Source of the DNA: Candidatus Kerfeldbacteria bacterium RIFCSPLOWO2_02_FULL_42_19
Lineage (GTDB): Bacteria > Patescibacteriota > Patescibacteriia > HO2-48-17
DNA: 64,000 nucleotides
NCBI GenBank assembly: GCA_001818315.1
Contig: MHKF01000012.1
Span: 23,976-87,975 of the forward strand
Reading direction: 5' to 3'
Below the pieces are notes generated by a model. The model saw nothing but the letters and a program-made list of their open reading frames with translations. It did not search any database and had not been told where the DNA came from. Below are positions 1-61,884 of the stretch, one piece after another; position 1 is the stretch's first letter, and each line of letters opens with the position of its first letter. The position numbers and the translations under genes are program-made.

Positions 1-840
1 CAAGTGGATACGCTTGGGAATAATAGCAACGCTACTGCGGTGCGGATCAAGTTTAATAAACAAGATCGTATTCTGGCTGCGCCGGCTATTTCCGGTGGTC
101 CGCAAGTGCGTGTGTTTAATGAAAAAGGAAAACTTCTGCATCAATTTTTTGCCTATAGTGAAAGTTTTCGCGGTGGTGTTCGATTAGCCTCTTGTGATCT
201 TGACGGCAACGGCAATGCTGAAGTTATTACTGCACCTGGTCTCGGCGGCGGCCCGCAAGTGCGGGTATTCGATATGAATGGGAAAACGAAATTTACTCAA
301 GGATTTTTCGCCTACCCGAGTAATTTTAAGGGCGGTGTTTTTGTAGCTTGCGGTGACCTCGACGGCGACGGTCGTGCCGAGATTATTACTGGCACTGGCG
401 CAGGCGGCGGCCCGCAAGTGCGCGTGTTCGATAAGTCAGGGAATACGCGTTTTACTCCCGGTTTCTTTCCATACGATAGTAAGTTCCGCGGAGGCGTACG
501 TGTTGCTTCGGGAGATGTGAATGGTGATGGTATCGCAGAAATTATTACTGCACCTGGTCCTGGCGGCGGCCCACAGGTACGTCTTTTTGATCGCACTGGA
601 AAACCTGTGCTGGTAGCCGGTGGGTTTATGGCTTATGCGAGTAGTTTTAAGGGTGGCGTGAATCTTGCGATCGGCGATATTGATCAGGATGGAGCAGAGG
701 AGATCATCACCGGGGTTGGTGCTTCTGGATCACCACTGGTGCGAGCGTTTCATTACAAGGGTACGACTATCGAAAGTGAATTTTCTGCTTTTGACCAATC
801 CTTTAAGGGTGGTATTGTTGTTGCTGGAGGTTTTGAATAA
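1..840 (+). CDS. FG-GAP/VCBS-type beta-propeller repeat protein, 5' truncated by the window edge
   Basis: The ORF runs from the window edge. Four to five tandem ~60-aa repeats carry D-x-D-x-DG-x-AE-IITG-G-GGGPQVRVF motifs (integrin-alpha FG-GAP-like Ca-binding blades). The same module occurs at the C-terminus of the 49770..54305 protein. Confidence 0.7.
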   Translation, partial: QVDTLGNNSNATAVRIKFNKQDRILAAPAISGGPQVRVFNEKGKLLHQFFAYSESFRGGVRLASCDLDGNGNAEVITAPGLGGGPQVRVFDMNGKTKFTQGFFAYPSNFKGGVFVACGDLDGDGRAEIITGTGAGGGPQVRVFDKSGNTRFTPGFFPYDSKFRGGVRVASGDVNGDGIAEIITAPGPGGGPQVRLFDRTGKPVLVAGGFMAYASSFKGGVNLAIGDIDQDGAEEIITGVGASGSPLVRAFHYKGTTIESEFSAFDQSFKGGIVVAGGFE

Positions 841-2464: not shown

Positions 2465-3217
2465 GTGAGGAATCAGAATTATTTTGATCTTTTGGCATTG
2501 TTCCGTACCTCGCCATTTGGAGAGGATCCGGAGCAGTGTCTTCCTGATCCGGGTGTAGTTTCACAATTCATGTCAACGCTTGTAGCGTACATTTCGAAGG
2601 CGAAGACTTCCTTGAAGATTGCTTCGGGTGAAGCTAATTTCCACCTTTACAGTGATCCGCAATTCCTACAAGTGTTGCGATTCCTTGCGCAACGCGGAGT
2701 TCGTATCGCGTTGGTTCTTGGTCCCGTGGTTTCTCGTGGATTGACGCAGAATTCTCCGGAGATGTTTCAGTTAACACAGGATGGTAGTCTTGAGATCTAT
2801 TATCGAGCACAGCGCGGTGGGACTGCCGAGGTATTCCTCTGTGATGATAGAGAAGCGTGGCTGTGTGATCGATGGTCGCCAGATTTTTGTTTTCAGACGC
2901 CTCCTGTGATTCGTCACCTTTCAGTCAAAAATACTCGTGACATGTTGCAGTTCAATGCTGTACTCCGGACCTTCAAGCATTTCATGGCTTTTCAAAATAG
3001 GGTCATCGATCCATGGAGCGACTTCTTGGTACTTCGACCATCGGAGATTCGTGCTCTTCGCGCAAGCCTTGATGTCCCTGAGATGTACGAGTCGCTGCAA
3101 TTGCAGGACCTTGTTTCTCTGCTGCGCGATGCTCGTAGGTTGGAACTGGAACGGAAACCACAAGGCTGGGCAGTTTCTATGAATGTTCACGCGTTCGATG
3201 CGAGTTCAGCAATGTAA
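2465..3217 (+). CDS. hypothetical protein
   Basis: 250-aa ORF with a GTG start preceded by AAGGAGG SD. I see no recognisable motif. Confidence 0.55.
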   Translation: MRNQNYFDLLALFRTSPFGEDPEQCLPDPGVVSQFMSTLVAYISKAKTSLKIASGEANFHLYSDPQFLQVLRFLAQRGVRIALVLGPVVSRGLTQNSPEMFQLTQDGSLEIYYRAQRGGTAEVFLCDDREAWLCDRWSPDFCFQTPPVIRHLSVKNTRDMLQFNAVLRTFKHFMAFQNRVIDPWSDFLVLRPSEIRALRASLDVPEMYESLQLQDLVSLLRDARRLELERKPQGWAVSMNVHAFDASSAM

Positions 3218-3345
3218 TTTTGAGCAGGCTGTCTCGAAACTCATAGCAGTTTTAAGACAGCCTGTTTCGCATTTTGACGACAGTGCAGGTATAGTAAAGG
3301 TGGACTTCTGTTTTAGGCTTATAGATTTTTTATTCCATTCAATCC

Positions 3346-4671
3346 ATGGTTTTTAAAGAATTATTTAAAAAAATAATTCCTGCAACAATTTTGAGCGCCT
3401 ATCATTTGATGCTTGCATGGGTTGCTGCAGTTTGGTATCGATTTCCTTCTCGTAGGCTTATTGTTATTGGCGTAACCGGTACGAAAGGAAAATCGACGAC
3501 GAGTTTTTTTATTACTAAACTTCTCGAAACACTCGGTGAATCTGTCGGGCTCTCGGGCACGATTATGTTTAAGGTTGGACGTCGCGAATGGCCGAATACT
3601 CTCAAGATGACGATGCCAGGTCGATTTCGTTTGCAGCGATTATTGCGGGATATGGTTCGTGCGGGTTGCGCGTTCGCTGTGATCGAGACAACTTCAGAAG
3701 GTATTGCTCAGCACCGGCATCGCGGCATCGACTATGACGTGCTTGTTTTTACAAATCTTTCTCCAGAGCATATCGAGCGACACGGGAGTTTTGAAGCGTA
3801 TAAGCGTGCTAAACAATCGTTGTTTCAGAATTTGCATCGTAGTTTTCATAAAAATCTTTTTTTCCATAAGCAAGTTCGGCGTATTCTTAAAGTTATCGTT
3901 GTGAATCGTGATGATCCTCATTTCGCTGGTTTTGTGCAATTTTCTGCTGATCAACACGTCGCTGTGAGTCTCTGTGATACAGCTGCTGCAATTTTTGCTC
4001 GCGATGTTATTTCAAATGACTCCGGCAATACATTTACCGTGGCCGATCAACATTTTACTTTGTCGTTACTTGGAGATTTTAATGTCATGAATGCTTTACT
4101 CACATTAGCCGTCGGTGCCGTGTTTGATTTTTCTTTAGAGCATATGAGGTTGGCGCTTGCGAAACTCCCGCAGATTCCAGGGCGTATGCAGCGCATTGAT
4201 GGAGGTCAGGATTTTACGGTGATTGTTGATTACGCTCATGAACCCAAAAGTATGGAAGCGTTGTTTCGTAATGCAAAGCGTCTACGAAAAAATCCGCAGA
4301 GTCGCATTATTACTCTGATAAGTTCTACCGGCGGTGGTCGAGATGTTGCACGTCGACCTATGCTCGGTAAACTCGCTGGTGGGTATGCGGATATTGTGAT
4401 TGTGACTGACGAAGATCCGTATGATGAGGATCCGAATGTTATTATGCAAGCGGTTGCAAGGGGTGTTGTCGAAGCTGGAAAAATACTCGGTCAAACTTTT
4501 TTCATTTTTCAAGATCGCAAGGAAGCTATTTTCGAAGCCATTCGTTTGGCTCGTAGTGGTGATGTAGTGCTTTTACCCGCAAAAGGCTCGGAACGAGTCA
4601 TGGCCGTAGCACATAATACACATATTCCGTGGAGCGACGAAGCTATCGCTCGAGAAGCTTTGAAAAAGTAG
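3346..4671 (+). CDS. murE: MurE-like Mur ligase (UDP-MurNAc-tripeptide synthetase family) that lacks the N-terminal UDP-binding domain and carries an N-terminal TM helix instead
   Basis: P-loop GVTGTKGKSTT. It matches E. coli MurE segment by segment: TMPGRFRLQRLLRDMVRAGC and FTNLSPEHIERHGSFEAYKRAK align with LQRLLAEMVDAGC and [22 protein letters not shown]. The C-terminal LLPAKGSE...SD motif is also MurE-like. The DNPR position reads DEDPY. An in-frame stop at 3322 rules out an upstream extension. Confidence 0.65.
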   Translation: MVFKELFKKIIPATILSAYHLMLAWVAAVWYRFPSRRLIVIGVTGTKGKSTTSFFITKLLETLGESVGLSGTIMFKVGRREWPNTLKMTMPGRFRLQRLLRDMVRAGCAFAVIETTSEGIAQHRHRGIDYDVLVFTNLSPEHIERHGSFEAYKRAKQSLFQNLHRSFHKNLFFHKQVRRILKVIVVNRDDPHFAGFVQFSADQHVAVSLCDTAAAIFARDVISNDSGNTFTVADQHFTLSLLGDFNVMNALLTLAVGAVFDFSLEHMRLALAKLPQIPGRMQRIDGGQDFTVIVDYAHEPKSMEALFRNAKRLRKNPQSRIITLISSTGGGRDVARRPMLGKLAGGYADIVIVTDEDPYDEDPNVIMQAVARGVVEAGKILGQTFFIFQDRKEAIFEAIRLARSGDVVLLPAKGSERVMAVAHNTHIPWSDEAIAREALKK

Positions 4672-4946: not shown

Positions 4947-8303
<3,357 letters not shown>

Positions 8304-8309
8304 CTATTC

Positions 8310-11300
8310 TTGAGACTTATGTTGGAAAACATTACACTTCGTGTTCAAGATTTTAAAGCGATTCGTTTGAAACTCGCGTCACCTGACGAGATACTTGATT
8401 GGTCTCATGGCGAAGTAACTCGACCTGAGACAATTAATTATCGCACACAACGGCCAGAACGTGATGGATTGTTTTGTGAACGTATTTTTGGTCCATCGAA
8501 AGATTGGGAGTGTTATTGTGGAAAGTATAAGAGGATTCGTTATAAGGGTATTGTTTGTGATAAGTGTGGTGTGGAAGTTACGCGTTCTGTTGTGCGACGT
8601 GAGCGCATGGGTCATATTCAACTTGCGGCGCCTGTGTCGCATATTTGGTTTCTCCGCGGTGTCCCTTCAAAAATTGGTTTTATTCTTGATCTCTCTGTAC
8701 AAGCGCTCGAAAAAGTTATCTATTTCGCGAATTTTATTATCACAAATGTTGATGAGACGCTGAAGGAAAAAACCCTTGTCCAGATTTATGATGAAGCCAA
8801 GTCAAAGCGACACAGTATCCAAGGTGAATATCAACAAACAGTGCAAGATATTGAAAAACGCAAAAAAGCAGCTTTACATCAAGCAACTGGAACGCAGCGC
8901 AAGACTCTTACGGAGGAATTTGAACAGGAGCTTATCAACGCTGCCGTTATGCGAGATGAAAAATTGAAGGATTTGGACACGGCTGTAGATCTTGCGAAGA
9001 AAGAACTTAAAAATCTTGAGTCTCTGCAAATTTTATCTGAAAGTGAATATCAAGATCTTTCTTTAAAGTATGGTCATGTATTTGAGGCTAGTATTGGCGC
9101 TGAAGCCATCCGGAAACTTTTGGAACACATTGATTTAGATAAGCTTACTCACGAACTTGCAGAAGCAATAATTGAGAGCGCTAAAAATCAAAAGCGTCGT
9201 CTTGTGCGTCGTTTGAAGTTTGTGCGTAGTCTCAGATTGAATAATATTCGTCCGGATTGGATGATTTTGACGATGTTGCCTGTGATTCCTCCCGATCTTC
9301 GTCCTATGGTGCAACTTGATGGCGGTCGTTTTGCTGCTTCCGATTTGAATGATTTATATCGCCGTGTGATTAATAGGAATAATCGTCTGAAGAGACTTCA
9401 GGAACTTAACGCGCCGGAAGTGATCCAGCGTAATGAAAAGCGTATGCTTCAAGAAGCCGTTGATGCACTCATTGATAACAGCGCCCGTCATGGGAAAACC
9501 GTTACAGCCTCTACAGGTCAAAAGCGGCAATTAAAATCACTTGCGGATATGCTCAAAGGCAAACAAGGTCGTTTTCGCCAGAATCTCCTTGGGAAGCGCG
9601 TAGACTATTCTGGGCGTTCAGTCATTGTTGTTGGTCCTCATTTGAAGCTCCATCAGTGTGGACTGCCGAAGACCATGGCGTTGGAACTTTTTAAGCCTTT
9701 TGTGATGAGTGAATTAATCAAACGCGAAATTGTTTACAATGTTCGGAGCGCAAATCGTTTTATTGAATCTGGCGACGGTCGTATTTGGGACATACTGGAA
9801 GAGATTACGAAGAAATCCTATGTCCTCCTGAATCGTGCTCCGACACTCCATCGATTGGGTATTCAAGCTTTTCAACCGATACTTATTGAGGGTAAGGCTA
9901 TTCAGATCCATCCACTTGTTTGTACGGCTTTTAATGCAGATTTTGATGGTGATCAAATGGCAGTGCATATTCCGCTGACAGCAGAAGCTCAAAAGGAAGC
10001 CGCTCAAATTATGCTTTCGTCAAAGAATTTGTTGAAGCCGGCAACGGGTGATCCGGTTGTTTCCCCGAGCCAAGATTTAGTTCTTGGTGTGTATTACATG
10101 ACAACATTTGCGCAGAAAGAACGTGCACATGTTTTTGAGAGTCCCATAGAGGCGTTGAATATGTATGCCCTGGGGCATATCGGTATTCAAACCCGCATCC
10201 GAGTTCGTATAGATCAGAAAATTATTGAAGATGACACACAATCTGATCTGAAGAAAGGCATTGTCCTCACTTCAGTTGGGAGAATACTTTTCAATCAAGT
10301 TTTACCAGAGAGCATGCAGTTTATCAATAAAACGCTTGATAAGAAAGGACTCCGTCAGGTGATTGCGGAATGTTTGCGTCTGCACGGACGTGAACGTACA
10401 GTGGAACTTTTGGATGCTATTAAGATGGCGAGTCTGACCTACTTAACGAGTTCTGGTCTGAGTTGGGGTATGGACGATTTGATGATCCCAAAGGAAAAAA
10501 CAGATATTGTGAGCGCAGCTGAGAAAGAAGTTGATGAGTTGCAGTCGCAGTATGACGCTGGTCTTTTGACCGACGAGGAGCGACATGCTCGTATTGTTGC
10601 AGTATGGACTCGTGTAAAGAATGACATCACCGACCTCAGTCAGAAAACGCTCGATCCATATGGTTCTGTGTATGCTATGATTAATTCCGGATCACGAGGT
10701 TCTTGGGGCCAAACGACGCAGATGATGGGTATGAAGGGACTTGTTGTTAGTCCTTCAGGTAGTACTATCGAATTGCCTGTGAAGCGGAGTTTTAAAGAAG
10801 GTTTTGATGTATTGGAATATTTTATTTCGACACACGGCGCTCGGAAAGGTTTGACGGATATTGCTTTACGTACTGCGAATGCAGGGTATCTTACTCGGCG
10901 TTTGGTGGATGTGGCACAAGATGTTGTGGTTATACAAGAAGATTGCGGCGATCGCGTTGGAATTACATGGCGGAAAGAGGAAGTCGGTGAAATGGGTCCT
11001 GCACTGGAAGATCGCGTGATTGGGCGTGTACTTGCTAAACCCATTCTTCATCCGAAGACAAAAAAAGAAGTATTGAAGGCCGGTGAACTCGTAACTTCTG
11101 AGCATAGTAAAATATTGAAGAAATTAGGTTTGAAAGAGGTTACGTTTCGCTCTGTTTTAACCTGCAAGACGTTACGAGGAATTTGTCAGCAATGTTATGG
11201 TTACGATTTAGGCCACAATACCTTAGTTGCACTCGGTACCGCTGTGGGTATTATTGCTGCACAAAGTATTGGTGAACCGGGCACCCAGTTGACTATGAGA

Positions 11301-12218
11301 ACCTTCCATACCGGCGGTGTTGCTGGAGCGGATATCACACAAGGATTACCACGTGTGGAAGAACTTTTTGAAGCCCGACCTATTAAGAGTGCTGGTATAC
11401 TTTCTGAAGTCGATGGCGAGGTTTTGGAAGTGAAAGAAGAAGGAAAGCAAAAGACCCTTGTGCTGCGTTATTCAAAACCCACTAAACAAGTCGTAACTAT
11501 TGCAAAGGGTGATAAGGTAGAGGTTAAAGATGGCGATCAAGTCCGTGTTGGTGACATCTTACTCAAACACGTTTCCGAAAATATTCCTGCGCATGTTGAT
11601 GGGAATGTTAAAATTGAAAATCGCCAGATCATGGTCTTTGGTACTGAAGAGAAAGTTGTGGAATATGCTCTTCCGATTGGCTTTGGTGTGAAGGTTGGAG
11701 TTGGAGATCTTGTAACTCAGGGTATGCAGCTTTCTGAAGGGAGTCTTGATCTTCATCAGCTTTACTTACTCCGAAGCAAACTTGACACACAGAAATATAT
11801 TATTAAAGAGATCCAATACATTTATGCTTCTCAGGGACAAGATCTGAACGATAAGCATCTTGAGGCTATCGTGCGTCAGATGTTTTCGCGATATTACATT
11901 AAGGACGCACGTGATACCGATATGATTACCGGTGATATTGTTGCTTTGCATCAAATCATTCGCGCGAATCAGAAGGTTAAAACTTCAGGAGGAAAAGAAG
12001 CTCTTACCGAACCTCTGTTGCTGGGTATTACAAAGGTTTCGCTTTCAACAGATAGCTTCTTAGCCGCTGCTTCGTTTATTGAAACTGCTAAAGTTCTCAT
12101 CGACGCCGCAATTTCCGGTAAAGTTGATGATTTGTCCGGGTTGAAAGAAAACGTTATTATCGGGAAACTTATTCCTGTCGGCACTGGCTTTGTGCCTCCT
12201 GTGAGTCAGGAAAAATAA
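8310..12218 (+). CDS. rpoC: DNA-directed RNA polymerase subunit beta'
   Basis: 1302 aa with the NADFDGDQMAVH catalytic motif and a Zn-binding Cys cluster near the N-terminus. It starts 6 nt after rpoB. Confidence 0.98.
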   Translation: MRLMLENITLRVQDFKAIRLKLASPDEILDWSHGEVTRPETINYRTQRPERDGLFCERIFGPSKDWECYCGKYKRIRYKGIVCDKCGVEVTRSVVRRERMGHIQLAAPVSHIWFLRGVPSKIGFILDLSVQALEKVIYFANFIITNVDETLKEKTLVQIYDEAKSKRHSIQGEYQQTVQDIEKRKKAALHQATGTQRKTLTEEFEQELINAAVMRDEKLKDLDTAVDLAKKELKNLESLQILSESEYQDLSLKYGHVFEASIGAEAIRKLLEHIDLDKLTHELAEAIIESAKNQKRRLVRRLKFVRSLRLNNIRPDWMILTMLPVIPPDLRPMVQLDGGRFAASDLNDLYRRVINRNNRLKRLQELNAPEVIQRNEKRMLQEAVDALIDNSARHGKTVTASTGQKRQLKSLADMLKGKQGRFRQNLLGKRVDYSGRSVIVVGPHLKLHQCGLPKTMALELFKPFVMSELIKREIVYNVRSANRFIESGDGRIWDILEEITKKSYVLLNRAPTLHRLGIQAFQPILIEGKAIQIHPLVCTAFNADFDGDQMAVHIPLTAEAQKEAAQIMLSSKNLLKPATGDPVVSPSQDLVLGVYYMTTFAQKERAHVFESPIEALNMYALGHIGIQTRIRVRIDQKIIEDDTQSDLKKGIVLTSVGRILFNQVLPESMQFINKTLDKKGLRQVIAECLRLHGRERTVELLDAIKMASLTYLTSSGLSWGMDDLMIPKEKTDIVSAAEKEVDELQSQYDAGLLTDEERHARIVAVWTRVKNDITDLSQKTLDPYGSVYAMINSGSRGSWGQTTQMMGMKGLVVSPSGSTIELPVKRSFKEGFDVLEYFISTHGARKGLTDIALRTANAGYLTRRLVDVAQDVVVIQEDCGDRVGITWRKEEVGEMGPALEDRVIGRVLAKPILHPKTKKEVLKAGELVTSEHSKILKKLGLKEVTFRSVLTCKTLRGICQQCYGYDLGHNTLVALGTAVGIIAAQSIGEPGTQLTMRTFHTGGVAGADITQGLPRVEELFEARPIKSAGILSEVDGEVLEVKEEGKQKTLVLRYSKPTKQVVTIAKGDKVEVKDGDQVRVGDILLKHVSENIPAHVDGNVKIENRQIMVFGTEEKVVEYALPIGFGVKVGVGDLVTQGMQLSEGSLDLHQLYLLRSKLDTQKYIIKEIQYIYASQGQDLNDKHLEAIVRQMFSRYYIKDARDTDMITGDIVALHQIIRANQKVKTSGGKEALTEPLLLGITKVSLSTDSFLAAASFIETAKVLIDAAISGKVDDLSGLKENVIIGKLIPVGTGFVPPVSQEK

Positions 12219-31962: not shown

Positions 31963-33360
31963 TTGATGTTTTTACCCTCTATCATTTTTTATATGTTTTC
32001 GTGGATTCAAAAGAATCAACTGACGCGTGGAGCGGCGATACTTTTTGTGACTGCTTTTGCAAGTTATTTTCTTGGGCTCGTGCGCGATCGGCTCCTTGCA
32101 CATACGTTTGGTGCAGGCGTGGAGCTTGATGTGTATAACGCAGCGTTTTTAGTGCCGGATCTTTTGTTGAATATTTTTGTTGCAGGTGCTTTGCAGGCAG
32201 CGTTTCTTCCTATTTTAGGGCAAGTTTTTGTGCAGCGCGGGAAAGAAACCGCTGATCGACTCGCGAGTACTATTTTGAATACCGCGCTTTTCACGATGTT
32301 GATATTGGGAGTCGTGAGTTTTATGTTGATACCGAAATTTTCTTTCGTACTTGCGCCTGGGTTTACAGCCGAGCAAAAGACGCTTCTTGTGACTCTCACG
32401 CGCCTTTTGCTTCTTTCACCTTTGATTTTCGCTGCGAGTAATACTTTCGGTGCCATGCTCGTGAGTCGTAAACGATATCTCGCGTACGGACTTTCGCCGG
32501 TGTTGTATAATTTTGGCATTATTCTTGGTGTGGCGGTGTTTGCGCGTTGGTTAGGAATTTTTGGTGTAGTAGTTGGAACGCTTCTTGGTGCTGTGTTGCA
32601 TCTTACGATTCGGTTGCTTGATGTGCGTTCGTTATCTTTTCAGTATCGTAAGTTTTTGCACTGGCAAGACCCTGCGTTTCGAAAAATTATTGAACTTATG
32701 ATTCCTAAAATGATTGGTCATCCTGCTGAACAGCTTACGTTTTTCGCCTTTACGACGGTCGCTTCGACACTTGCAGTGGGGAGTATCACGATGATGAATT
32801 TTGCGCGCAATTTTATGAGTGTTCCCGTGAGTTTGTTTGGTATTGCGTTTGCAACGGCTACGTTTCCTCTGTTAGCAGAAGCGCGTGCTTCTTTACAACG
32901 AGAGCAATTCTGGCAGTATGTGCGCGACGGTGCCCGAAAGATTTTGTATTTCACGATACCTTCTGCGGTTGTATTTGCATTATTCAGTAGTGTGATTGTT
33001 CGTAGTTTTCTTGGCAGCGGGAAGTTTGATGCATCGGCGGTCACGGGCACGGCAATGCTCTTGAGTATTTTTGCTTTGAGCGTTCCTCTTGAGAGTATTG
33101 CGCATTTGCTCGCGCGTAGTTTTTACGCACTGCAGAATACTTGGTTTCCGGTACTTTGTTCTCTTATCGGATTTGGTGTTGCGAGCGGTGTTGCGGCGAT
33201 ATTAGCAAAGCAGTTGGGCCTTTCATCGCTTGGCTGGGGATTTTTTGTCGGGAGTATATCGAAAGTGTTGTTATTGATTTTTGTCCTGCGGTATCGATTT
33301 CACCGAGCGTTTGCCGTCGCGACGGCTGTGGACAAAAATGGTATTGACACACTACCATGA
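31963..33360 (+). CDS. murJ: lipid II flippase MurJ/MviN
   Basis: 465 aa, 12-14 TM segments, and a conserved N-terminal region (LLAHTFGAGVELDVYNAAFLVPDLLLNIF). Confidence 0.85.
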   Translation: MMFLPSIIFYMFSWIQKNQLTRGAAILFVTAFASYFLGLVRDRLLAHTFGAGVELDVYNAAFLVPDLLLNIFVAGALQAAFLPILGQVFVQRGKETADRLASTILNTALFTMLILGVVSFMLIPKFSFVLAPGFTAEQKTLLVTLTRLLLLSPLIFAASNTFGAMLVSRKRYLAYGLSPVLYNFGIILGVAVFARWLGIFGVVVGTLLGAVLHLTIRLLDVRSLSFQYRKFLHWQDPAFRKIIELMIPKMIGHPAEQLTFFAFTTVASTLAVGSITMMNFARNFMSVPVSLFGIAFATATFPLLAEARASLQREQFWQYVRDGARKILYFTIPSAVVFALFSSVIVRSFLGSGKFDASAVTGTAMLLSIFALSVPLESIAHLLARSFYALQNTWFPVLCSLIGFGVASGVAAILAKQLGLSSLGWGFFVGSISKVLLLIFVLRYRFHRAFAVATAVDKNGIDTLP

Positions 33361-36852: not shown

Positions 36853-39663
36853 ATGATTGACAGTCAAGATTTTGTGTTTGCGATGTTTTTATGCTGTAAT
36901 TATTCTATGTTTTGTTTTCAATCTTTACATTATTTCGCAAATTATCTGAAGCGTGCATTTTATAGTATTTTGCGAATATTACGATGTCGCACTCTTTATG
37001 TTTTCGCAATCGTGATCTTCATCACCGTTATTGTCGACTCGACGCCTCTTCTCGCTGCGGAAAATTTTGAAGCACCGGATTTTCAGGTCACACTGAGGGT
37101 TGCTGTAGCGCCCCAAGATATTGCTCCTCAAGCACAAGGAAGTTCGCTTCAGCAACTTGTGCGACAGGTTTTGAGGTTTTTCGCTCCTTTCGATCGCGTT
37201 GCACAAGCAACTTCATCTGTGGACGCGAAAACATTCGTTTCAACCGAACCTGTATGGATGCAATTACTTCGTGCTGTGTCACGCCCCGAACCCACACTCA
37301 TTTTTGTTTTTCTTTTTCTCGCATCCCTTTGCTATGCGCTATATGTGACGCGTGGGACAAAACATTTTTTTACTTTATTTTACAAGCCTCGCGCGCATCT
37401 CTTTCATCATCTCGCAAGGCGGAATTCGACCGGAACGTACCTTCACTCGTATGCGCGTTTTCATCTCCATGCTTTCCTTTCGAAGCACTTTGCGCTCGTC
37501 AGCGGTTTTCTCTTATTCGCGAAAGTTACTGTTGTCGCTGGCCTTGCAACTTTACTGTTGGATTTTCCGTTGCTTTCACGCGCTACTGAGCGTGATGTGC
37601 CTGTGTTTCCGGGGGCAATGCTTACATATCACATCGAATATGATAATCAAAGCGATACATCTCTTTCGCGAGTTCAATTTTCTCACGTATTTCCTCCTGG
37701 CACCGCGTATGTTCCCGGAACGTTTCTTTGGAATAACATCTCTCTCACTGATGTAGCTGATGAAGACGGATTTACGATAACCGACGGTGGATTTACTTTA
37801 CAATCGAATCAACTGCCAGTCGGCACAGGATCGTTTTCGTGGAACCTACGAGTCGCTCATCCTGCTCAAACGAACGCTATCGCAAGTAAAGTTGGATATC
37901 AAATAGATGACGGATTGTTGCAACAAACGAATACTTTCGTGAATCCGGTTGTTACTTTGACGATTTCAGGCAAGGCTTTTTATGATGTGAATCGCAATAA
38001 TGTTTTTGACGCAACGACTGAAACCGGCATCGCCGATGTTCACTTCGCTTTGTATGAAGATACGAATCAGAGCGACGTGTTTGACGGAACTGATACACTG
38101 CTTGCGGAAATGAATACTGCGGAACAAGGCCTCTATCATTTTTCGGGTTTGCGTCCAGGACTTTTTTTTGTAAAAGTTGTGGATGCTCGTGAGGGTCCTT
38201 ATGAACTTCTCGGTGGCTTTCAGGAGGTGCGATTGCAGGCGCTGGAGAGTGTCTCGAGTCAAGACGTCGCTTATATTTTACCTGATGTTGCGCAGAAATC
38301 GACGGTAATGTTCGGTACGCTTTGGCATGATATCGATCGTAATCAACAACATGATGATGGCGAGACGAATTTTAGTGATATAGAGTTACGTTTGTATCGC
38401 GATGCAGCGCACAAGGGTGTTTTGGAAACTCTGAATGATACACTTGTTGCAAGTACGTTCACGGATGAGGACGGTCGATTTCGATTTTTAATTCCAGAAG
38501 AAGGTGATTATTTTGTCCTGGTGTTGATGGAACGATTGCCGCAGGGGTATACATTGACGACCGCTAACCAACCGAAGCGTATTGCTGTGGACGTGGATAC
38601 ATCGGAAACGAATGTCGATAGTTTTGGATATGCATTGCCAACGAGCAGCATCGGTGACGAAGTTTTTGAGGATAGCAATAATAATACCTTGCATGATGCC
38701 ACTGAAGCTGGATTTTCTGATGTGCAAGTGCTGTTGTATCGTGACGATGGCTCGGAGCAATTCGAAGAAGCTTTGGATAATCGTATTGCTGAAACTTTTA
38801 CCGATTCCCAAGGGAAATATCTCTTTTCTCATGTAGCTTCGGGAGGGTACTTTGTAATGATTGACACTGCGACACTTCCGGACGAATCCGGATATCGTTT
38901 GACGACAGCTTCCAATCCTCGCTTTGTTGAAATTGTGATCGATACAGATCAAATGAACCTTCTTTCCGATTTTGGGTTTCGTTCGGAAACAGTAGGGAAT
39001 GATATTCCCTCTTCGTCTGGGTCTCAGTCCAATATCGGCACCGGAGCGACTCCACAATCCGCATCATCACGCATGACTACTCAGTCTGCTCAGGTTCCAA
39101 CGGAGACTATTCCTCAAACGAAACTGAATGTTGTACAGAAACCTGTGTCAGATACTCCGCAAGAGCCTGCAGTTACCACGCTTGATGTTGATTCCGATAC
39201 TGACGCTACATTATCTCCACAGAGTGTGGCGCAATCTGAGCAATCTGCTGGCGATAGTGTTCCAACTGTAACGCCGCAGCCAGTTACCACCGAATCTGAT
39301 TCTTCTGGGGAGGGTTTACAAATACAAAATGATACGGGTTATAAGAGTCGTCCTGTTACTTTACGTCCGTGGGCCACAGAAGATGCTTCGCAGGCTGCAT
39401 TCGAGAATCTCCAAAGACAACTTATGCAGTATGCGGTACGTTTGACTCCGTATGCGGCTTCCGTTTCCTGGTTGGAAACTCCGACGCAACGTTTTTCTGT
39501 GTTTCCTCATACACTCTTGCCTATTATCTTTTTTGTTATTGTTCTTTCATATTGTCTTATGTTGCTTCATGCGTCGGAACGTTCAAAATTTTCACACCGC
39601 TCATCCGTTGTTTATAGTCGCAAAAAGCCTCGTCGCAAAACGTATGCGCGCGTTAGTGAATAA
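36853..39663 (+). CDS. large secreted surface protein with four or more SdrD/Cna-B-type repeats, a Ser/Thr/Pro/Gln-rich stalk and a C-terminal TM anchor
   Basis: Repeated D-x-N-x-N-G-x-x-D...G...V-x-V-x-L...G-x-Y-x-F modules (e.g. FYDVNRNNVFDATTETGIADVHFALY...GLYHFSGLRPGLFFVKV). The start codon is uncertain, and the end overlaps the uvrC start by 20 nt. Confidence 0.6.
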   Translation: MIDSQDFVFAMFLCCNYSMFCFQSLHYFANYLKRAFYSILRILRCRTLYVFAIVIFITVIVDSTPLLAAENFEAPDFQVTLRVAVAPQDIAPQAQGSSLQQLVRQVLRFFAPFDRVAQATSSVDAKTFVSTEPVWMQLLRAVSRPEPTLIFVFLFLASLCYALYVTRGTKHFFTLFYKPRAHLFHHLARRNSTGTYLHSYARFHLHAFLSKHFALVSGFLLFAKVTVVAGLATLLLDFPLLSRATERDVPVFPGAMLTYHIEYDNQSDTSLSRVQFSHVFPPGTAYVPGTFLWNNISLTDVADEDGFTITDGGFTLQSNQLPVGTGSFSWNLRVAHPAQTNAIASKVGYQIDDGLLQQTNTFVNPVVTLTISGKAFYDVNRNNVFDATTETGIADVHFALYEDTNQSDVFDGTDTLLAEMNTAEQGLYHFSGLRPGLFFVKVVDAREGPYELLGGFQEVRLQALESVSSQDVAYILPDVAQKSTVMFGTLWHDIDRNQQHDDGETNFSDIELRLYRDAAHKGVLETLNDTLVASTFTDEDGRFRFLIPEEGDYFVLVLMERLPQGYTLTTANQPKRIAVDVDTSETNVDSFGYALPTSSIGDEVFEDSNNNTLHDATEAGFSDVQVLLYRDDGSEQFEEALDNRIAETFTDSQGKYLFSHVASGGYFVMIDTATLPDESGYRLTTASNPRFVEIVIDTDQMNLLSDFGFRSETVGNDIPSSSGSQSNIGTGATPQSASSRMTTQSAQVPTETIPQTKLNVVQKPVSDTPQEPAVTTLDVDSDTDATLSPQSVAQSEQSAGDSVPTVTPQPVTTESDSSGEGLQIQNDTGYKSRPVTLRPWATEDASQAAFENLQRQLMQYAVRLTPYAASVSWLETPTQRFSVFPHTLLPIIFFVIVLSYCLMLLHASERSKFSHRSSVVYSRKKPRRKTYARVSE

Positions 39664-49769: not shown

Positions 49770-52700
49770 ATGAGTATGCCTTTTCGTGCGTCGGGTAATG
49801 CCCGAGGTATCACTTTAGTACCTTCATTGCGTGCGACGATCGCTTTCCTTGCCGCGACGATCGTACTGTTTGCTATGTTTATCGTGCTGCTTTTTGCTTT
49901 TCCAGTTGATGCAGCGGGAAAAAATAAACCTACGCAGCCAATCGATGTCGCTGATAATGATAGTCGTATTGAAGACGTAACAGCCGTTGCTGCCGATACT
50001 ACACCGAGTGCAACCACCAGTTATACAGTTTCAATTCAGCTTACTGAGAGCATTCAACAAGGTGGCGAACTCCGTGTTGATTTTCAACTGACAGCCGGCT
50101 GTCCTCCACAAGCCGATTGGGCTACGCAGTGTCGTTTTGGTTTTACCGATGATGCTACTGTTTCCGGACTACCTGCCGGAGCCGTGTCAAATATTGCCGA
50201 CGTCAATGCTGATTCTTCACAGTTTGGTATTCGTGCAGAATCGGGAGCGATTGCGGCTGGCACGTTGGCTTTGACTGTTTCGGGTGTGAAAAATCCGAGC
50301 GCAGGAGGACTTGCGCGCGTGATGGTTGACAGTGTAGTACCTAGTGATGAACCGGATTGTCCATCTTCTGACGATAATGGCGATGACGATGGGGAGGAAG
50401 ATGAACATCAAGAATCAGAAGTGAATAAAGCTGATGATCAGGAAATGTGTTTTCCAGATATGACTGCTTCCGATCCTATCTATCTCGGCACTATGGCAGT
50501 TGTTGGTGCAGTAACATACAAAGGTGGAGATCTCGATGGTCAGCCAGTTTCTTATGGTTGGGTCAATGCCGGCACAAAGGATTTTTGGACAGGAAGTTCT
50601 ACAGATCGATTCGGAGCTTATGCGATTCCACTGCCGCTTCCGCAGGGGAAATATCAAATTCGTGCAGAAGTACCGATGGGCATCACCGGTTATATCCCAG
50701 CAGTCAAAGAAATTGAGTATAAAGGTACGACAATCACCCAGGATTTAACTCTTGGCATTGCAGTCAAAACTTTGAGTGGTACCGTTAAGTACGCTGATGG
50801 CAATGCAGTGGCTGATGCCTCGGTGTGGATTAATAGTCGTACTAATTTTATGGGTACTGGCGCAGAGGTGAATGAAAAAGGGGAATACAGTGCTTCTCTG
50901 GATTGTGGTGATTACGATATGAATTTGGGTCCAAAATGGGATCCTGAAACTAATCAACCTTCCAGTGTGGATTGGATGTATAATCAACCACCAAAGCAGG
51001 TTTCTTTTGCCTGCGATGGTCAACAGCAAACACAGACCGTCGATTTTACTGTGCAAAAGTCTGATTCAAAGGTCATTGGTACGCTTGTTGACAACAATGG
51101 CAAACCAGCTGATGGTCATGTCGAGCTTCGCACCAAGGAAGGGAGTGGAAACGGGAGTCACACCGATCAAAAAGGGAAGTTTTCCATTCCTATTACTGCC
51201 GGTACGTATGAAATGAATGTGTGGACACAACAGCAGGATTTATATTTTACAGGGCAAAAAGTTGAAGTTCCAACAGGTAAGACTGTGGATGTTGGGACGC
51301 TTCAGTTATCAAAACGCGATGCGCAAATCACTGGTACCGTCACAGACTCAAACGGTACTCCTTTGAGCGGAATGAATGTGAATGCGTGGATGCCGGGAGC
51401 TCAAGGTTGGTCAAATGCGCAGACCGATGACAAGGGTCAGTACACTCTCTATGTTTTCGTTGGTGAATGGGAAGTTGGAATTCACTCAGGAGAAGGTGAA
51501 GACAGTAGTGATCAAAATTACATTCAACCACAGAATCAACGTGTGAAGATTGAAAAGTCCGGGCAGACTGTTAGTGATATCAACTTTAAACTGGAGGCAG
51601 CGGATGCAACGATTGCAGTGCAGGTTGTGGATCAGGATAATAACACGATGAGTGATTTGTACGGATGGGCGTTCTGCCATCTTGAGGGTCAATTTGGACC
51701 AGGAAATGAATTTGGTGCTTCCGTGCAACGCGGTCAGGCCAGTATCCCTGTTCGCGGCGGAGAGACCTATGTTTGCGGTATGGGTTTTCCTCCGGAGATG
51801 CCATTTTCTTTAGAAGAAGAACAAAAAGTTCAGATTAACTCTGGCGAAAGTAAAGATGTCACGATGCGTTTGGTTGAGAATGATGCTGTTATTCATGTCA
51901 TTGTTAAAGATCAAGATGGTAAACAGTTGAAGAATGTGGAGGGATTTGTCTTTGCCTTTACCCCAGAAGGATTTAGTCATTTTGGTGAACCGTTGAAACC
52001 CGATGGTACAGCACATTTGACCGTGCGTGGGGGAAAGAAATACGTTGTTGGTTATGATTTCCGTGAAAATTCAGGATATCTCAATTCTCATCCCGACTTC
52101 AAACCCTTTGAGGTTCCTGAGGACTCTACGGTGACTCGTGTACTGACGGCTTATAAAGCAGACGCGAGTATTAGTGGTACAGTGACTGACCCGGATGGAA
52201 AACCAATGTTTGCATGGGTTGGTGCGAGTAACCGCGCTTCACTTGAAGACAAAGCGCAACTTGATACCGGTGTAGAAGGTGCACAAGTCATTGACACCGG
52301 CACTCAAACCGGTCCAGATGGAAAATATAAACTTCTCCTTGTTTCTGGTGAATTCGAAGTTTTTGCCGGTGGAGAATTTGGTGGGAAAAAAGATTTACTC
52401 CCTCCACAACTTTCAAGCGTTACGGTGAAAACTGGTGATGCACTGACATTGGACATGCAATTTCGTTCAGCCGATGCAACTGTCTCTGGTGCTGTGACGT
52501 ATGCTGATTCCGGTAAAACTGTTCCGATTGGTTTCTGCTGGGCATGGTCAGATGAGCAAGGATTTTCCGGGAATATGTTGAGCAATGGAAAATACACTAT
52601 CCCGCTTGTGGAGGGCACCTGGTTTGTGGGTTGTGATTCCTTTAATCCAAACAAAGGTGAAGGAGAGTTTTATCGCGCACAAGAAGCGATAGTGACAGTG

Positions 52701-54305
52701 ACGAAGGGTGACACTATCACGCAAGATTTTCAACTCAGTAAGGCCTTATTCGAGATTCCTGATGGTGTATCGGAGACCTTTAGTTGTACAACTTTGAAAG
52801 AGATGCGACTTCCTGACGGCACAATTGTGAAGATTCCCGCGAATGCTTTGTGCACAGACGGTGATGTGACCGTGACCGCTGATCCGGCGACTGATGTATT
52901 TCGTACCAATGACGCAAAGCTTCTTATGTACGCATGGAATCTTGAAGCTTTACAGGACGGTCAACTTATCGAGAGCTTTAATTCCAATGTGACTATTATT
53001 ATTCCGTATAGCCAAGAAGTTGTTGATGAGGAAGGTATTGATGAATCGAATCTGCTGGCAAAATTCTTCGATGATTCTACGAGTACCTGGCAGACACCGG
53101 ACAACGTCACAGTGGATACTGAAGCTAACTTGGTCACCGCACAAGTAGATCACTTTACAGAGTTTGCAGTGACCAATAGCGGTGATACGAAGACAAGTAG
53201 TGAAGTGAAAGAAACAACACAAAAGAAACAACGTCATGATATTGTGATTACTCCGTGGTCCAAGGGTGGTCCGCAGGTTGCGGTGTGGAATAAAGATGGG
53301 AAACTGATTACGACGTGGTTTGCTTATGGACAGGATCTGCGCATGGGAATCACGACCTTTAGTGGCGATCTTGATGGCAATGGCGTACCAGAAGTGATTA
53401 CGATTCCTGGTGAAGGCTTTAGTTCGCAGGTTCGTGTTTTTGACGGCACAAATGGAAAAATTTTGAGTCAGTTCTTTGCCTATGATACCGCTTTCAAGAA
53501 AGGTATCAATCTTGCAGTGTATGATCTCGATGGCGATGGAGATCAAGAAATTATTACGGTTCCAGCCAAGGACGCGACTGCTGATGTAAAGATTTTCGAT
53601 CGCAATGGTACGCTTGTCATGCGGTTCAACGCGTATGGGTCGACCTTCACGAAGGGCGCTTTAGTAGCTGCGATGGATTTAGATGGAGATAAACTCGGTG
53701 AAGTTGTTACAGCGCCAGTTGATGGTTCAGGGCAGATTCGTATCTGGTCAGCCAGTAAGGATGATGGTCCTGTTGCTCAATTCGATGCGTACGGCGCTGG
53801 ATATAATAAAGGTATTGCGTCTCTCGTATTGAATGATCTCGATGGAGATGGAAAGGGTGAAATTATCACAACTCCACGGGAGGGTAGTTCACAAGTTCGC
53901 ATCTTTAATCGTTCTGGGAAAGTCATCACGCAGTTCAATGCCTATGGTGAGGGCTTTAAGGGTGGTTCACGTATTGCAGTTGGAGATACTGATGGCGATG
54001 GCAAGCAAGACCTTGTAGCTTTGCCGAATGCGAATGGTTCTGCGCAGGCTCGTATCTTTACAAAGGATGGAGCGGTGAAATCGCAGTTCTTCGCATACCC
54101 GTCGGAGACGACGCGTCCAGGAAGATTCTCAGCAATGCTTGCTGATTTGGATGCCAATGGCAAAGATGAAGTGATCTTCGGCACGGGTGTGGATTTGGGA
54201 CCAAACGTGCGCATTTTTGATCAGAACGGTAAGACCATTGCGCAATTTATGGCATTGCATCCTGGCTTCCGCGGCGGTATGAATGTGAATGCCGTAGCGA
54301 GATAG
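49770..54305 (+). CDS. giant (1511 aa) surface protein with N-terminal TM/signal, ~8 carboxypeptidase-regulatory-like beta-sandwich repeats and a C-terminal FG-GAP beta-propeller
   Basis: Repeats of the form GTVTDSNGTPLSGMNVNAW / GTLVDNNGKPADGHVELR. The C-terminal blades (GGPQVAVWN...DLDGNGVPEVITIPGEG..SQVRVFD) are the same module as ORF 1..840. Confidence 0.7.
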   Translation: MSMPFRASGNARGITLVPSLRATIAFLAATIVLFAMFIVLLFAFPVDAAGKNKPTQPIDVADNDSRIEDVTAVAADTTPSATTSYTVSIQLTESIQQGGELRVDFQLTAGCPPQADWATQCRFGFTDDATVSGLPAGAVSNIADVNADSSQFGIRAESGAIAAGTLALTVSGVKNPSAGGLARVMVDSVVPSDEPDCPSSDDNGDDDGEEDEHQESEVNKADDQEMCFPDMTASDPIYLGTMAVVGAVTYKGGDLDGQPVSYGWVNAGTKDFWTGSSTDRFGAYAIPLPLPQGKYQIRAEVPMGITGYIPAVKEIEYKGTTITQDLTLGIAVKTLSGTVKYADGNAVADASVWINSRTNFMGTGAEVNEKGEYSASLDCGDYDMNLGPKWDPETNQPSSVDWMYNQPPKQVSFACDGQQQTQTVDFTVQKSDSKVIGTLVDNNGKPADGHVELRTKEGSGNGSHTDQKGKFSIPITAGTYEMNVWTQQQDLYFTGQKVEVPTGKTVDVGTLQLSKRDAQITGTVTDSNGTPLSGMNVNAWMPGAQGWSNAQTDDKGQYTLYVFVGEWEVGIHSGEGEDSSDQNYIQPQNQRVKIEKSGQTVSDINFKLEAADATIAVQVVDQDNNTMSDLYGWAFCHLEGQFGPGNEFGASVQRGQASIPVRGGETYVCGMGFPPEMPFSLEEEQKVQINSGESKDVTMRLVENDAVIHVIVKDQDGKQLKNVEGFVFAFTPEGFSHFGEPLKPDGTAHLTVRGGKKYVVGYDFRENSGYLNSHPDFKPFEVPEDSTVTRVLTAYKADASISGTVTDPDGKPMFAWVGASNRASLEDKAQLDTGVEGAQVIDTGTQTGPDGKYKLLLVSGEFEVFAGGEFGGKKDLLPPQLSSVTVKTGDALTLDMQFRSADATVSGAVTYADSGKTVPIGFCWAWSDEQGFSGNMLSNGKYTIPLVEGTWFVGCDSFNPNKGEGEFYRAQEAIVTVTKGDTITQDFQLSKALFEIPDGVSETFSCTTLKEMRLPDGTIVKIPANALCTDGDVTVTADPATDVFRTNDAKLLMYAWNLEALQDGQLIESFNSNVTIIIPYSQEVVDEEGIDESNLLAKFFDDSTSTWQTPDNVTVDTEANLVTAQVDHFTEFAVTNSGDTKTSSEVKETTQKKQRHDIVITPWSKGGPQVAVWNKDGKLITTWFAYGQDLRMGITTFSGDLDGNGVPEVITIPGEGFSSQVRVFDGTNGKILSQFFAYDTAFKKGINLAVYDLDGDGDQEIITVPAKDATADVKIFDRNGTLVMRFNAYGSTFTKGALVAAMDLDGDKLGEVVTAPVDGSGQIRIWSASKDDGPVAQFDAYGAGYNKGIASLVLNDLDGDGKGEIITTPREGSSQVRIFNRSGKVITQFNAYGEGFKGGSRIAVGDTDGDGKQDLVALPNANGSAQARIFTKDGAVKSQFFAYPSETTRPGRFSAMLADLDANGKDEVIFGTGVDLGPNVRIFDQNGKTIAQFMALHPGFRGGMNVNAVAR

Positions 54306-60486: not shown

Positions 60487-61884
60487 GTGACATTACAAGA
60501 GCTTCGCATACAACATCCTTGTTTTCACTATCGGTCGTTCGCATATGCCCTGAAGGGCGAGATACTTCAGCTTGATTTTGTATTTGAACTTGAACCTGAT
60601 ATTATCTTTCAGCCACGGACTTTCATACATGGTCTTGATATCACGCGTTTTTCTACGCTTCGTCCGCAGCTATTGAATCATTTTATTTTTCATCTCGGTC
60701 TGCTTGAATTATTGAGTTATTGGAAGACAGCGTGTTCTCCTGTGATTGAGATCGCTTCCGGTGTTTTGGATGAAGCGCAGATTGCTTGGTGGCAGGATTT
60801 ATTTTTACAGGGTCTTGGTGAGTTTTTCTATGTCAATCAAATTGATTATACCGCTCCTGACTTTGTGCGTTTTAAGGTTCTGCCTCACACACGGGCGTAT
60901 ACCGAAAGTGATAGTACTCCACAATGTTTTCAAGGGAGTCTTGATGCCAAACGGATACTTGTGCCTGTTGGGGGAGGTCGTGACTCTATCGTTACATTAG
61001 AGTTTCTGAAAAAGACTCCGCATGAACTTTCTGCTTTTCTGATCAATCCAACACAAGCGCAACGTGATGTAGTGCAAATCAGTGAATTGACCCGTCAGAT
61101 TATTGTTGAGCGTAGATTAGATTCGAAACTTTTTGATTTGAACGCTGCTGGATACTTGAACGGTCATGTGCCCATTTCTGCGTATTATGCGTTCTATGCG
61201 TGTTTTGTCGCAGTTCTTTTAGGATACAAATTCGTCTCGATTTCGCAGGAACGTAGTTCGAACGAAGGAACAGTCGATTTTTATGGCTTGTCTGTGAATC
61301 ATCAATATTCGAAGACATTTGAATTTGAAGAGAAATTTCGTAAGTATTTCACCTCTGTGTTAGCTTCTGATTTGGAATATTTTAGTTTGTTACGCCCGTT
61401 GTATTCGGTGCAAATTTCCAAGATTTTTGCGAATACGCCAAAATACTTTCCTGTTTTCCGCAGTTGCAATCGCGGACAAAAGACGAATACATGGTGTGGG
61501 GTTTGTGCGAAATGCTTGTTTACATACGCATCGTTGTTTCCTTTTGTATCGGAATCAGTTTTGCAGAGTATTTTCGGGGCCGACATATTATCGAAGTCCG
61601 AGCTTCGTGAGACCGCATTAGAGCTCATCGGTAAGCGCCCAGCGAAACCCTTTGAATGCGTCGGTACGTTTGAGGAAAATAAAGTTGTTTTCTTTTTGTG
61701 TATGCAAAAATTTCAAAAGTCGTATGCAGATAAGCCGTTGCCATCGGTACTTGGCGTCGTTTCTGCGGCACTTGTGGAAGAAACCGATATGGCGCAGCGT
61801 GCGCAGGCGCTTCTGAGTTCCTGGAATACGCAACATCATGTGCCAGAGCAGTTTGCCGAGCTCCTCCATGCTTTTGTTGAATGA
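60487..61884 (+). CDS. PP-loop-like ATP pyrophosphatase-fold protein with a C-terminal Cys cluster, uncharacterised
   Basis: ILVPVGGGRDSIVTLEF resembles the SGGxDS PP-loop. The C-terminus carries CNRGQKTNTWCGVCAKC. Putative GTG start; the gene ends 40 nt upstream of murD. Confidence 0.5.
   Translation: MTLQELRIQHPCFHYRSFAYALKGEILQLDFVFELEPDIIFQPRTFIHGLDITRFSTLRPQLLNHFIFHLGLLELLSYWKTACSPVIEIASGVLDEAQIAWWQDLFLQGLGEFFYVNQIDYTAPDFVRFKVLPHTRAYTESDSTPQCFQGSLDAKRILVPVGGGRDSIVTLEFLKKTPHELSAFLINPTQAQRDVVQISELTRQIIVERRLDSKLFDLNAAGYLNGHVPISAYYAFYACFVAVLLGYKFVSISQERSSNEGTVDFYGLSVNHQYSKTFEFEEKFRKYFTSVLASDLEYFSLLRPLYSVQISKIFANTPKYFPVFRSCNRGQKTNTWCGVCAKCLFTYASLFPFVSESVLQSIFGADILSKSELRETALELIGKRPAKPFECVGTFEENKVVFFLCMQKFQKSYADKPLPSVLGVVSAALVEETDMAQRAQALLSSWNTQHHVPEQFAELLHAFVE

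Follow-up and report, generated by a model that had tools for sequence, protein, structure and literature searches.

A MurE homologue without the N-terminal UDP-binding domain in a Kerfeldbacteria genome and across Patescibacteria

Can a ligase of peptidoglycan synthesis do without the domain that binds the uridine nucleotide of its substrate? MurE catalyzes, at the expense of ATP, the ligation of the third residue to the peptidoglycan stem peptide. Within the three-domain plan of these enzymes, an N-terminal uridine diphosphate (UDP)-binding domain (domain 1) is treated as common to MurC, MurD, MurE and MurF, and among peptidoglycan Mur ligases that lack it the best known is MurT, which acts on lipid II. 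We analyzed 64,000 nucleotides (nt; hereafter, the window) from Candidatus Kerfeldbacteria bacterium RIFCSPLOWO2_02_FULL_42_19 (contig MHKF01000012.1, positions 23,976 to 87,975), which belongs to the Patescibacteria (candidate phyla radiation, CPR), a very large and mostly uncultured phylum of ultra-small bacteria. The murE open reading frame (ORF) of the window lies at 3346..4671 on the forward strand, starts with ATG and encodes a protein of 441 amino acids (aa) in which domain 1 is truly absent.

An earlier note on this DNA had described the product as a MurE homologue held in the membrane by a transmembrane helix in place of domain 1, and had read it either as a ligase for a lipid-linked precursor or as a MurE whose domain 1 is supplied in trans. 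The observation was partly confirmed and the interpretation partly supported. We consider it probable, at about 0.62, that the protein is the Patescibacteria orthologue of MurE in a two-domain form, from which the ancestral domain 1 (~80 residues) has been deleted.

Domain content and distribution of the short MurE

Pfam scans placed Mur_ligase_M (PF08245) at residues 43-256 (E=8e-38) and Mur_ligase_C (PF02875) at residues 279-413 (E=1e-25). The NCBIfam murE model TIGR01085, for EC 6.3.2.13 / 6.3.2.7, scored 339.9 bits against a cutoff of 257.3, with a match that spans profile positions 59-471 only. As the earlier note had stated, the protein is thus a MurE homologue with the central (M) and C-terminal (C) domains. 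The hidden Markov model (HMM) scan that the note had proposed as a check did not detect the N-terminal Mur_ligase domain (PF01225) in the 441-aa protein, even at E<=1; the same scan found it at residues 25-102 of E. coli MurE, which served as a positive control. Residue 11 of the short protein pairs with E. coli MurE residue 82 by BLASTP, and residue 10 pairs with M. tuberculosis MurE residue 118 by phmmer. Compared with canonical MurE, the short form shares the M and C domains, the fold and ~30-34% identity over residues 11-441, but it is without the ~80 residues of domain 1 that hold the uridine and diphosphate site.

The best sequence matches in the PDB were all MurE. The AlphaFold2 (AF2) model, with a predicted local distance difference test (pLDDT) score of 94.6 and a predicted template modeling (pTM) score of 0.93, superposed on S. 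aureus MurE (4c13) with a template modeling (TM) score of 0.84 and a root-mean-square deviation of 2.4 A over 426 columns, and on E. coli MurE (1e8c) with values of 0.82 and 2.8 A over 432 columns. Foldseek returned MurE or plant MurE-like chains as its top 34 matches. As modeled, the fold of the 441-aa protein is the MurE fold.

We then asked whether the missing domain could reflect an error. The chance that a normal murE has been cut short by a frameshift, a misassembly or a wrongly called start is negligible. An in-frame TAG stands at 3322-3324, direct reading revealed no start codon between it and the ATG at 3346, and the protein can therefore have no N-terminal extension, as the note had argued from the same stop. 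The gene upstream ends at 3217, leaving a spacer of 128 nt. The identical protein has been recorded from a Candidatus Kerfeldbacteria metagenome-assembled genome (MAG) and is found on 14 contigs from several sources, a public 320-kb scaffold carries the same murE gene call, and both the length and the conserved N-terminus recur in hundreds of independent homologues.

The short form was found throughout the lineage. All of the 120 best homologues were 425-490 aa long and had M and C domains only, with no PF01225, and in 79 of the 120 exactly 39 residues preceded GxTGT; these proteins are phylogenetically related, and such counts are not of independent events. Among the 150 best representatives of clusters at 50% identity, ~145 were 410-480 aa long, with alignments that covered both proteins from residue ~2-8 onward. 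A scan of species-representative genomes yielded ~77 short-murE loci in named Patescibacteria lineages: Falkow-, Buchanan-, Moran-, Kaiser-, Staskawicz-, Doudna-, Nomura-, Taylor-, Lipton-, Magasanik-, Campbell-, Ryan- and Peribacteria, Paceibacterota, Minisyncoccales and Saccharimonadales-type bins. Our locus sample comprised ~80 Patescibacteria loci with +/-6 kb around murE, a view of loci rather than of whole genomes. In the 73 of these clear of contig ends, the median distance from the in-frame stop to the P-loop was 49 codons.

Three loci outside the CPR that had appeared to be short-form relatives (Paenibacillus L082, Pontibacillus L084 and a Eubacteriales MAG, L085) proved to encode ordinary full-length MurE in division and cell wall (dcw) clusters, in which 104-107 residues precede the P-loop and the motif is DNPR, as in enzymes that add meso-diaminopimelate (meso-DAP); they became controls. 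The best-scoring canonical relative, P0250, was likewise rejected as a CPR protein; its gene sits in a Firmicutes-like dcw cluster. In this sample of loci, a short N-terminus and a non-DNPR motif co-occurred. Since both the absence of domain 1 and the non-DNPR motif are lineage-wide, an upstream frameshift or misassembly hiding a normal N-domain, which the note had named as the finding that would overturn it, is excluded. The two-domain form is a lineage-wide architecture of Patescibacteria, neither an accident nor an assembly error.

It is very improbable that a separate small protein provides domain 1 in trans, the second possibility raised in the note. Beyond the fact that the function of domain 1 would otherwise be unaccounted for, nothing spoke for it. 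We built an N-domain HMM from five canonical MurE N-domains. Its hits included the MurE N-domains in all three Firmicutes controls, themselves training sequences (E ~1e-34, best 9e-36), and, as an independent control, the MurF N-domains of the same three loci (E 4e-12 to 1e-7). By contrast, a six-frame search of the window and the ~80 Patescibacteria loci (~0.94 Mb) gave no match at E<=10. The genes upstream of murE are not conserved (CutA1, YjbQ or RuvA in other genomes), and in several genomes their ends touch or run into the start of murE. In the window, the neighbor directly upstream is a 250-aa ORF (2465..3217, forward strand) that has no Pfam or NCBIfam match and that the public scaffold likewise records as a gene; we rejected it, and any other nearby ORF, as a source of the N-domain.

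Several records depart from the common pattern. Six Patescibacteria-type short murE loci (L006, L013, L021, L053, L064 and L080) came from bins labeled Gammaproteobacteria, Azotimanducaceae, Bathyarchaeia or Bdellovibrionales; such MAG labels probably reflect binning or labeling errors. Two short MurE homologues carry C-terminal fusions, to DUF192 in P0143 (613 aa) and to an Archease domain in P0223 (589 aa). In a Peribacteria-labeled bin (L073, 5530..7263), the stop-to-stop frame of the short MurE runs ~140 residues further upstream, through a stretch that resembles a riboflavin kinase domain (GFPTVN...GVYA...GPKPTF); either a fusion or two genes without a stop between them could account for this.

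Databases label these proteins simply MurE, and genome papers, PMC11809585 among them, tally the gene under murE. We found no description of a truncated MurE in CPR/Patescibacteria in the searchable open-access literature. The short MurE has most of the features by which a MurE is recognized and lacks two, domain 1 and the meso-DAP motif.

The N-terminal remnant

In place of domain 1, the short form has a cationic amphipathic helix and a Tyr-His pair. The AF2 model has helices at residues 2-10 and 13-30. Across the family (n=194), residues ~2-11 had a mean hydrophobic moment of 0.685, against 0.398 for shuffled sequences, with the moment above the protein's own shuffle median in 99% of proteins and a net charge of +2.8. 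A Pro after the first helix was conserved at 94% among 250 short forms. At the positions of Y19 and H20, canonical MurE has L/S/T/F and N/R/Q/Y, respectively. The remnant of ~40 residues runs from a Lys-rich amphipathic helix through the conserved Pro and the Tyr-His pair to a helix leading into the P-loop strand.

The note had taken the second of these helices for a transmembrane anchor, a proposal that we rejected. Using simple scale sums rather than a trained predictor, we obtained a Kyte-Doolittle value of 1.66 for segment 13-31, barely above the usual threshold; values of >=1.6 were found in only 9 out of 120 homologues, and the median was 1.08. On the Hessa biological scale, the best 19-mer summed to +2.96 kcal/mol, which is unfavorable for insertion. 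The median across 253 short forms was +7.3 kcal/mol, with none (0/253) at or below 0. Many homologues have Arg, Lys or Glu within the helix segment. In addition, alignment pairs the segment at ~10-31 residue by residue with a soluble helix located ahead of the P-loop strand in the MurE of E. coli and M. tuberculosis, and the superposition of the AF2 model, over 426-432 of its 441 columns, fits the remnant helix in the canonical place. The claim of membrane anchoring thus failed on unfavorable insertion energy, on hydrophobicity that is not conserved and on homology to a soluble helix.

In MurE and MurF complexes, the pyrophosphate of the substrate lies at the boundary between domains 1 and 2 (PMC6113224). 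The Lys face of the first helix, Y19/H20 and K87/R93 may therefore make up for the contacts to diphosphate and uridine that went with domain 1; another possibility is that they tether the enzyme to the surface of the membrane.

Active site and the residue added

Conservation was assessed in an alignment of 255 sequences, comprising 250 short forms and five canonical MurE. Catalytic and substrate residues that were at least 90% conserved and are known to matter were identical in short and canonical MurE: K49, E114, S117, R124, H142, H146, K156, N249, R280, D295, R332, D333, R337, R391, and K413 and E416 (K413-G-x-E416). The short form thereby keeps the P-loop, the Mg2+ ligands, the position of the carbamylated Lys, the domain 2 substrate residues and the Glu that binds the distal amino group. 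The GxTGTxGK motif was invariant among close homologues. Residues specific to the short family were Y19, H20, M90, G92, R93, G331, D357 and Y359. At the level of motifs, KMTMxGR stands in the short form where canonical MurE has xTTxxx, GGGRD where it has GGDRD, and EDPY where it has DNPR (meso-DAP type) or DNPA (S. aureus). K87 was invariant among 118 close homologues and, together with R93, adds family-specific basic residues to the first of these motifs.

Phmmer aligned T195, S222, S223 and R230 of M. tuberculosis MurE with T89, T116, S117 and R124. T195, S222 and R230 are domain 2 substrate contacts in the M. tuberculosis enzyme, for which the roles of T195/T196 have been described (PMC6736417). 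In canonical MurE, the uridine site lies in domain 1, and domain 2 binds the greater part of the substrate (PMC3829189). By analogy, the short MurE would hold its substrate mainly through domain 2, and we infer that catalysis proceeds as in other Mur ligases. The P-loop, through K49, would bind ATP, while E114 and a carbamyl-K156 would hold Mg2+; the gamma-carboxylate of D-Glu would be phosphorylated, and a diamino acid bound in domain 3 would attack the acyl phosphate through its alpha-amino group. E356 and E416 would retain the contacts to the distal amino group. The N-terminal remnant, together with K87/R93, may replace the contacts to the UDP diphosphate and/or tether the enzyme peripherally to the membrane.

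The note had also observed that the DNPR specificity motif is altered, and we can corroborate this: the motif is E356-D357-P358-Y359 here and non-DNPR lineage-wide, and the short MurE therefore lacks the mark of the meso-DAP subtype. In DNPR enzymes, Asn and Arg form hydrogen bonds with the distal carboxylate of meso-DAP, and roles for Glu-468 and Ala-409 have been described (PMC3829189). Lys-adding enzymes have Ala or Asn in place of Arg416 (PMC3829189, PMC6736417) and a more acidic pocket. The Lys-adding S. aureus MurE lyses E. coli when overexpressed there (PMC6736417). In the short form, E356 is a conservative Glu for the Asp that contacts the distal amino group, whereas D357 and Y359 take the place of the Asn and Arg that contact the distal carboxylate. 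Replacement of the distal-carboxylate ligands with retention of the distal-amino ligands points to a diamino acid without a distal carboxylate. With moderate confidence, we predict from these residues that the added amino acid is probably L-Lys or L-Orn, not meso-DAP.

The conserved EDPY predicts that most Patescibacteria are without meso-DAP at position 3 of the stem peptide, which bears on the cross-linking of the wall, on perception by host or immune receptors and on the amino acids that these cells would have to scavenge. In the literature searched, we found no data on the stem-peptide composition of Patescibacteria. Four Saccharimonadia-type bins (L075, L079, L081 and L083) have a short MurE with EEDDR, in which the Arg is kept and the Pro lost, and with HMTT in place of KMTMxGR. 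Given EEDDR in these loci and EDPY elsewhere, the classes of Patescibacteria may differ in the residue at position 3. Near the L003 homologue lies a FemAB-family gene, a weak hint of a Lys-type branched wall.

Pathway context and the acceptor

A MurJ lipid II flippase is encoded in the window (Table 1), and the organism therefore makes peptidoglycan. The window also encodes a MurL homologue, immediately upstream of a full-length MurD; the pair is 56 kb from murE. Characterized MurD and MurL homologues act on soluble UDP-MurNAc-peptides (MurNAc, N-acetylmuramic acid; PMC8788868), and by homology the organism would produce the normal soluble substrate of MurE. The MurD is probably of the MurD2 type, and the murL-murD pair looks like the glutamate-racemase-independent MurD2/MurL route, which a 2021 review described only from some Gamma- and Alphaproteobacteria and rare actinomycetes (PMC8788868). 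Pfam scans of ~35 window proteins revealed no Mur ligase besides this MurD beyond MurE itself, and no murF, murC or ddl was detected in the ~80 Patescibacteria loci.

The location of the short murE differs from that of canonical murE: it usually lies outside the dcw cluster, often just upstream of rpoBC. The order murE-rpoB-rpoC of the window recurs in other Patescibacteria (L002 and L003). In two relatives (L006 and L008), murD is directly upstream of the short murE, and in a Nomurabacteria MAG (L029, 6004..10629) the order is murE-mraY-ftsW-murG, with an 8-nt overlap of murE and mraY and no murF between them.

If a canonical MurE were encoded elsewhere in these genomes, the short protein could be a paralogue whose acceptor for the amino acid is a peptide, a recycling intermediate or a glycopolymer of another kind. 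We consider this quite improbable. A sample of loci leaves room for it, none of the equivalog-level MurE models reaches its cutoff (NF001126, for instance, gives 321.9 bits where 373 are required), and in the window, L002 and L003 the gene sits beside rpoBC, not in a dcw cluster. Against it, the ~0.94 Mb of surrounding Patescibacteria sequence contains no MurE-like gene other than the short form, which is conserved across Paceibacteria-, Saccharimonadia- and Peribacteria-type genomes, adjoins murD or mraY-ftsW-murG in some of them, keeps the domain 2 residues that bind the MurNAc-dipeptide (T89, S117 and R124) and is named MurE in public sources.

The first possibility raised in the note was a lipid-linked substrate: a membrane-sited enzyme would add residue 3 to undecaprenyl-pyrophosphoryl-MurNAc-dipeptide, and a UDP-binding domain would be useless and would clash with the bilayer, as in MurT. 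We judge this unlikely. Domain 1 is missing across the phylum, the remnant opens with a conserved cationic amphipathic helix, its second helix is more hydrophobic than the canonical counterpart, and the overlap of murE with mraY in L029, with no murF between, would also fit. Moreover, the substrate pyrophosphate lies at the boundary of domains 1 and 2, and the MurT study argues that an N-domain clashes with the membrane (PMC6113224). However, there is no conserved transmembrane segment, and the full-length MurD and MurL in the window have characterized homologues that use soluble UDP-MurNAc-peptides. The scheme would further require a MraY that accepts UDP-MurNAc-dipeptide and a MurF that acts on lipid, of neither of which we saw any sign, and the protein is MurE-like, not MurT-like. 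A lipid-linked acceptor is thus less economical than a two-domain MurE that acts on the soluble substrate.

The comparison with MurT made in the note held for the missing N-domain and for no other MurT feature that we tested. MurT of MurT/GatD is a Mur-ligase homologue without an N-terminal UDP-binding domain, and it too has a short N-terminus of ~35 residues (PMC6113224). In MurT, the C-terminal domain is DUF1727, a Zn ribbon is inserted, GatD is an obligate partner and the motif is DNAAD. The short MurE, by contrast, has an ordinary PF02875 C-terminal domain and scores 29.3 bits against a cutoff of 800 with the MurT model NF052464, and no GatD-type gene was found among the called neighbors of murE. 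We therefore rejected membership in MurT. Other ligases that share an M and C core without a UDP-binding domain, namely FolC/FPGS, the M domain of cyanophycin synthetase and CapB/PgsB, act on acceptors that are not muramyl peptides and are far more distant (cyanophycin synthetase, E=9e-27; FolC, 6e-12; murE, 2.5e-101). The archaeal pseudomurein ligases (pMurC, pMurD1, pMurD2 and pMurE) are likewise divergent Mur-family ligases of a reduced or unusual wall pathway, but matched weakly: pMurE scored 47.8 bits against a cutoff of 600, and Foldseek ranked 6vr7 far below MurE.

A broader version, that throughout the phylum the third stem-peptide step no longer recognizes the uridine nucleotide, strikes us as rather unlikely. 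The short MurE would then work at the inner face of the membrane, held by its amphipathic tether, on a lipid-linked MurNAc-dipeptide or another acceptor recognized without the UDP moiety, and in Patescibacteria the membrane would have become the site of part of the 'cytoplasmic' Mur pathway.

Several points weigh against our preferred reading of a two-domain MurE orthologue that probably adds Lys or Orn. The activity of the family is predicted from sequence and model only, and a second full-length MurE elsewhere in the genome is formally possible. No Patescibacteria murF was found in the CPR loci or in the 10 kb past either end of the window. Helix 13-30 has insertion energies of +3 to +7 kcal/mol, against +10 to +17 in five canonical MurE, and this hydrophobic helix and the cationic amphipathic helix before it would also fit an enzyme working at the membrane. 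The Lys/Orn prediction rests on two substitutions, a Tyr at the position of Arg416 is not among the variants (Ala or Asn) of characterized Lys-adding enzymes, and the specificity of S. aureus MurE is not fixed by the motif alone (PMC3829189).

If uridine contacts are indeed dispensable for a bona fide UDP-MurNAc-peptide ligase, the short MurE would be a minimal Mur ligase made by nature, of use in enzymology and in the design of inhibitors. Alternatively, the wall pathway of the phylum is organized differently.

Table 1. Positions in the window of the short murE, its sequence features and other genes discussed in the text
Feature	Position	Strand	Basis
Short two-domain murE, Patescibacteria type	3346..4671	+	TIGR01085, Pfam, AF2 model, homologue alignments
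In-frame TAG stop, 8 codons 5' of ATG	3322..3324	+	Read from sequence; stop-to-stop ORF starts at 3325
Cationic amphipathic helix VFKELFKKI, residues 2-10, at former domain 1 site	3349..3375	+	AF2 model, family hydrophobic moment
Retained helix, residues 13-30, homologous to E. coli MurE ~84-103	3382..3435	+	Alignments; AF2 pLDDT 93-98
Y19-H20, former domain 1/2 boundary	3400..3405	+	96% each in short family; position relative to pyrophosphate inferred (PMC6113224)
P-loop GVTGTKGKST, G42-T51, including K49	3469..3498	+	Invariant columns
Loop K87-M-T89-M90-P-G92-R93	3604..3624	+	Alignments; T89 corresponds to the substrate-binding Thr of canonical MurE
K156, equivalent of carbamylated active-site Lys (E. 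coli K224)	3811..3813	+	Invariant; carbamylation predicted by analogy
E356-D357-P358-Y359, replacing DNPR	4411..4422	+	EDPY in 67 of ~80 loci; roles from PMC3829189
E416, equivalent of E. coli E468, distal amino group of added diamino acid	4591..4593	+	Alignment; PMC3829189
rpoB	4947..8303	+	Downstream of murE
rpoC	8310..12218	+	Downstream of rpoB
MurJ lipid II flippase	31963..33360	+	TIGR01695, 243 bits against a cutoff of 235.55
MurL homologue	60487..61884	+	PF26299 and PF26298; NF041275 E=1e-74, full length, below equivalog cutoff
Full-length MurD-family ligase, N-domain present	61924..63333	+	TIGR01087, 338 bits, profile positions 1-440

The remaining observations concern neighboring genes. 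A cell-wall gene is an unusual neighbor of an RNA polymerase operon. A murL-murD pair is also present in a Roizmanbacteria MAG (L088, 8526..11347), and Roizmanbacteria provided the single named CPR match to the window MurD. The closest homologues of that MurD, at 42-51% identity, are mostly from large-genome, non-CPR organisms (Chloroflexi, Anammoxibacter and Egibacteraceae labels), and tracing MurD homologues to reach a CPR murF led mostly to such non-CPR organisms. The history of the murL-murD module may differ from that of the rest of the genome. Large repeat-rich proteins are typical of CPR cell surfaces, and the window encodes putative surface proteins of this kind at 4..840, 36853..39663 and 49770..54305 (FG-GAP, SdrD B-like and CarboxypepD_reg), one of which is 1511 aa long.

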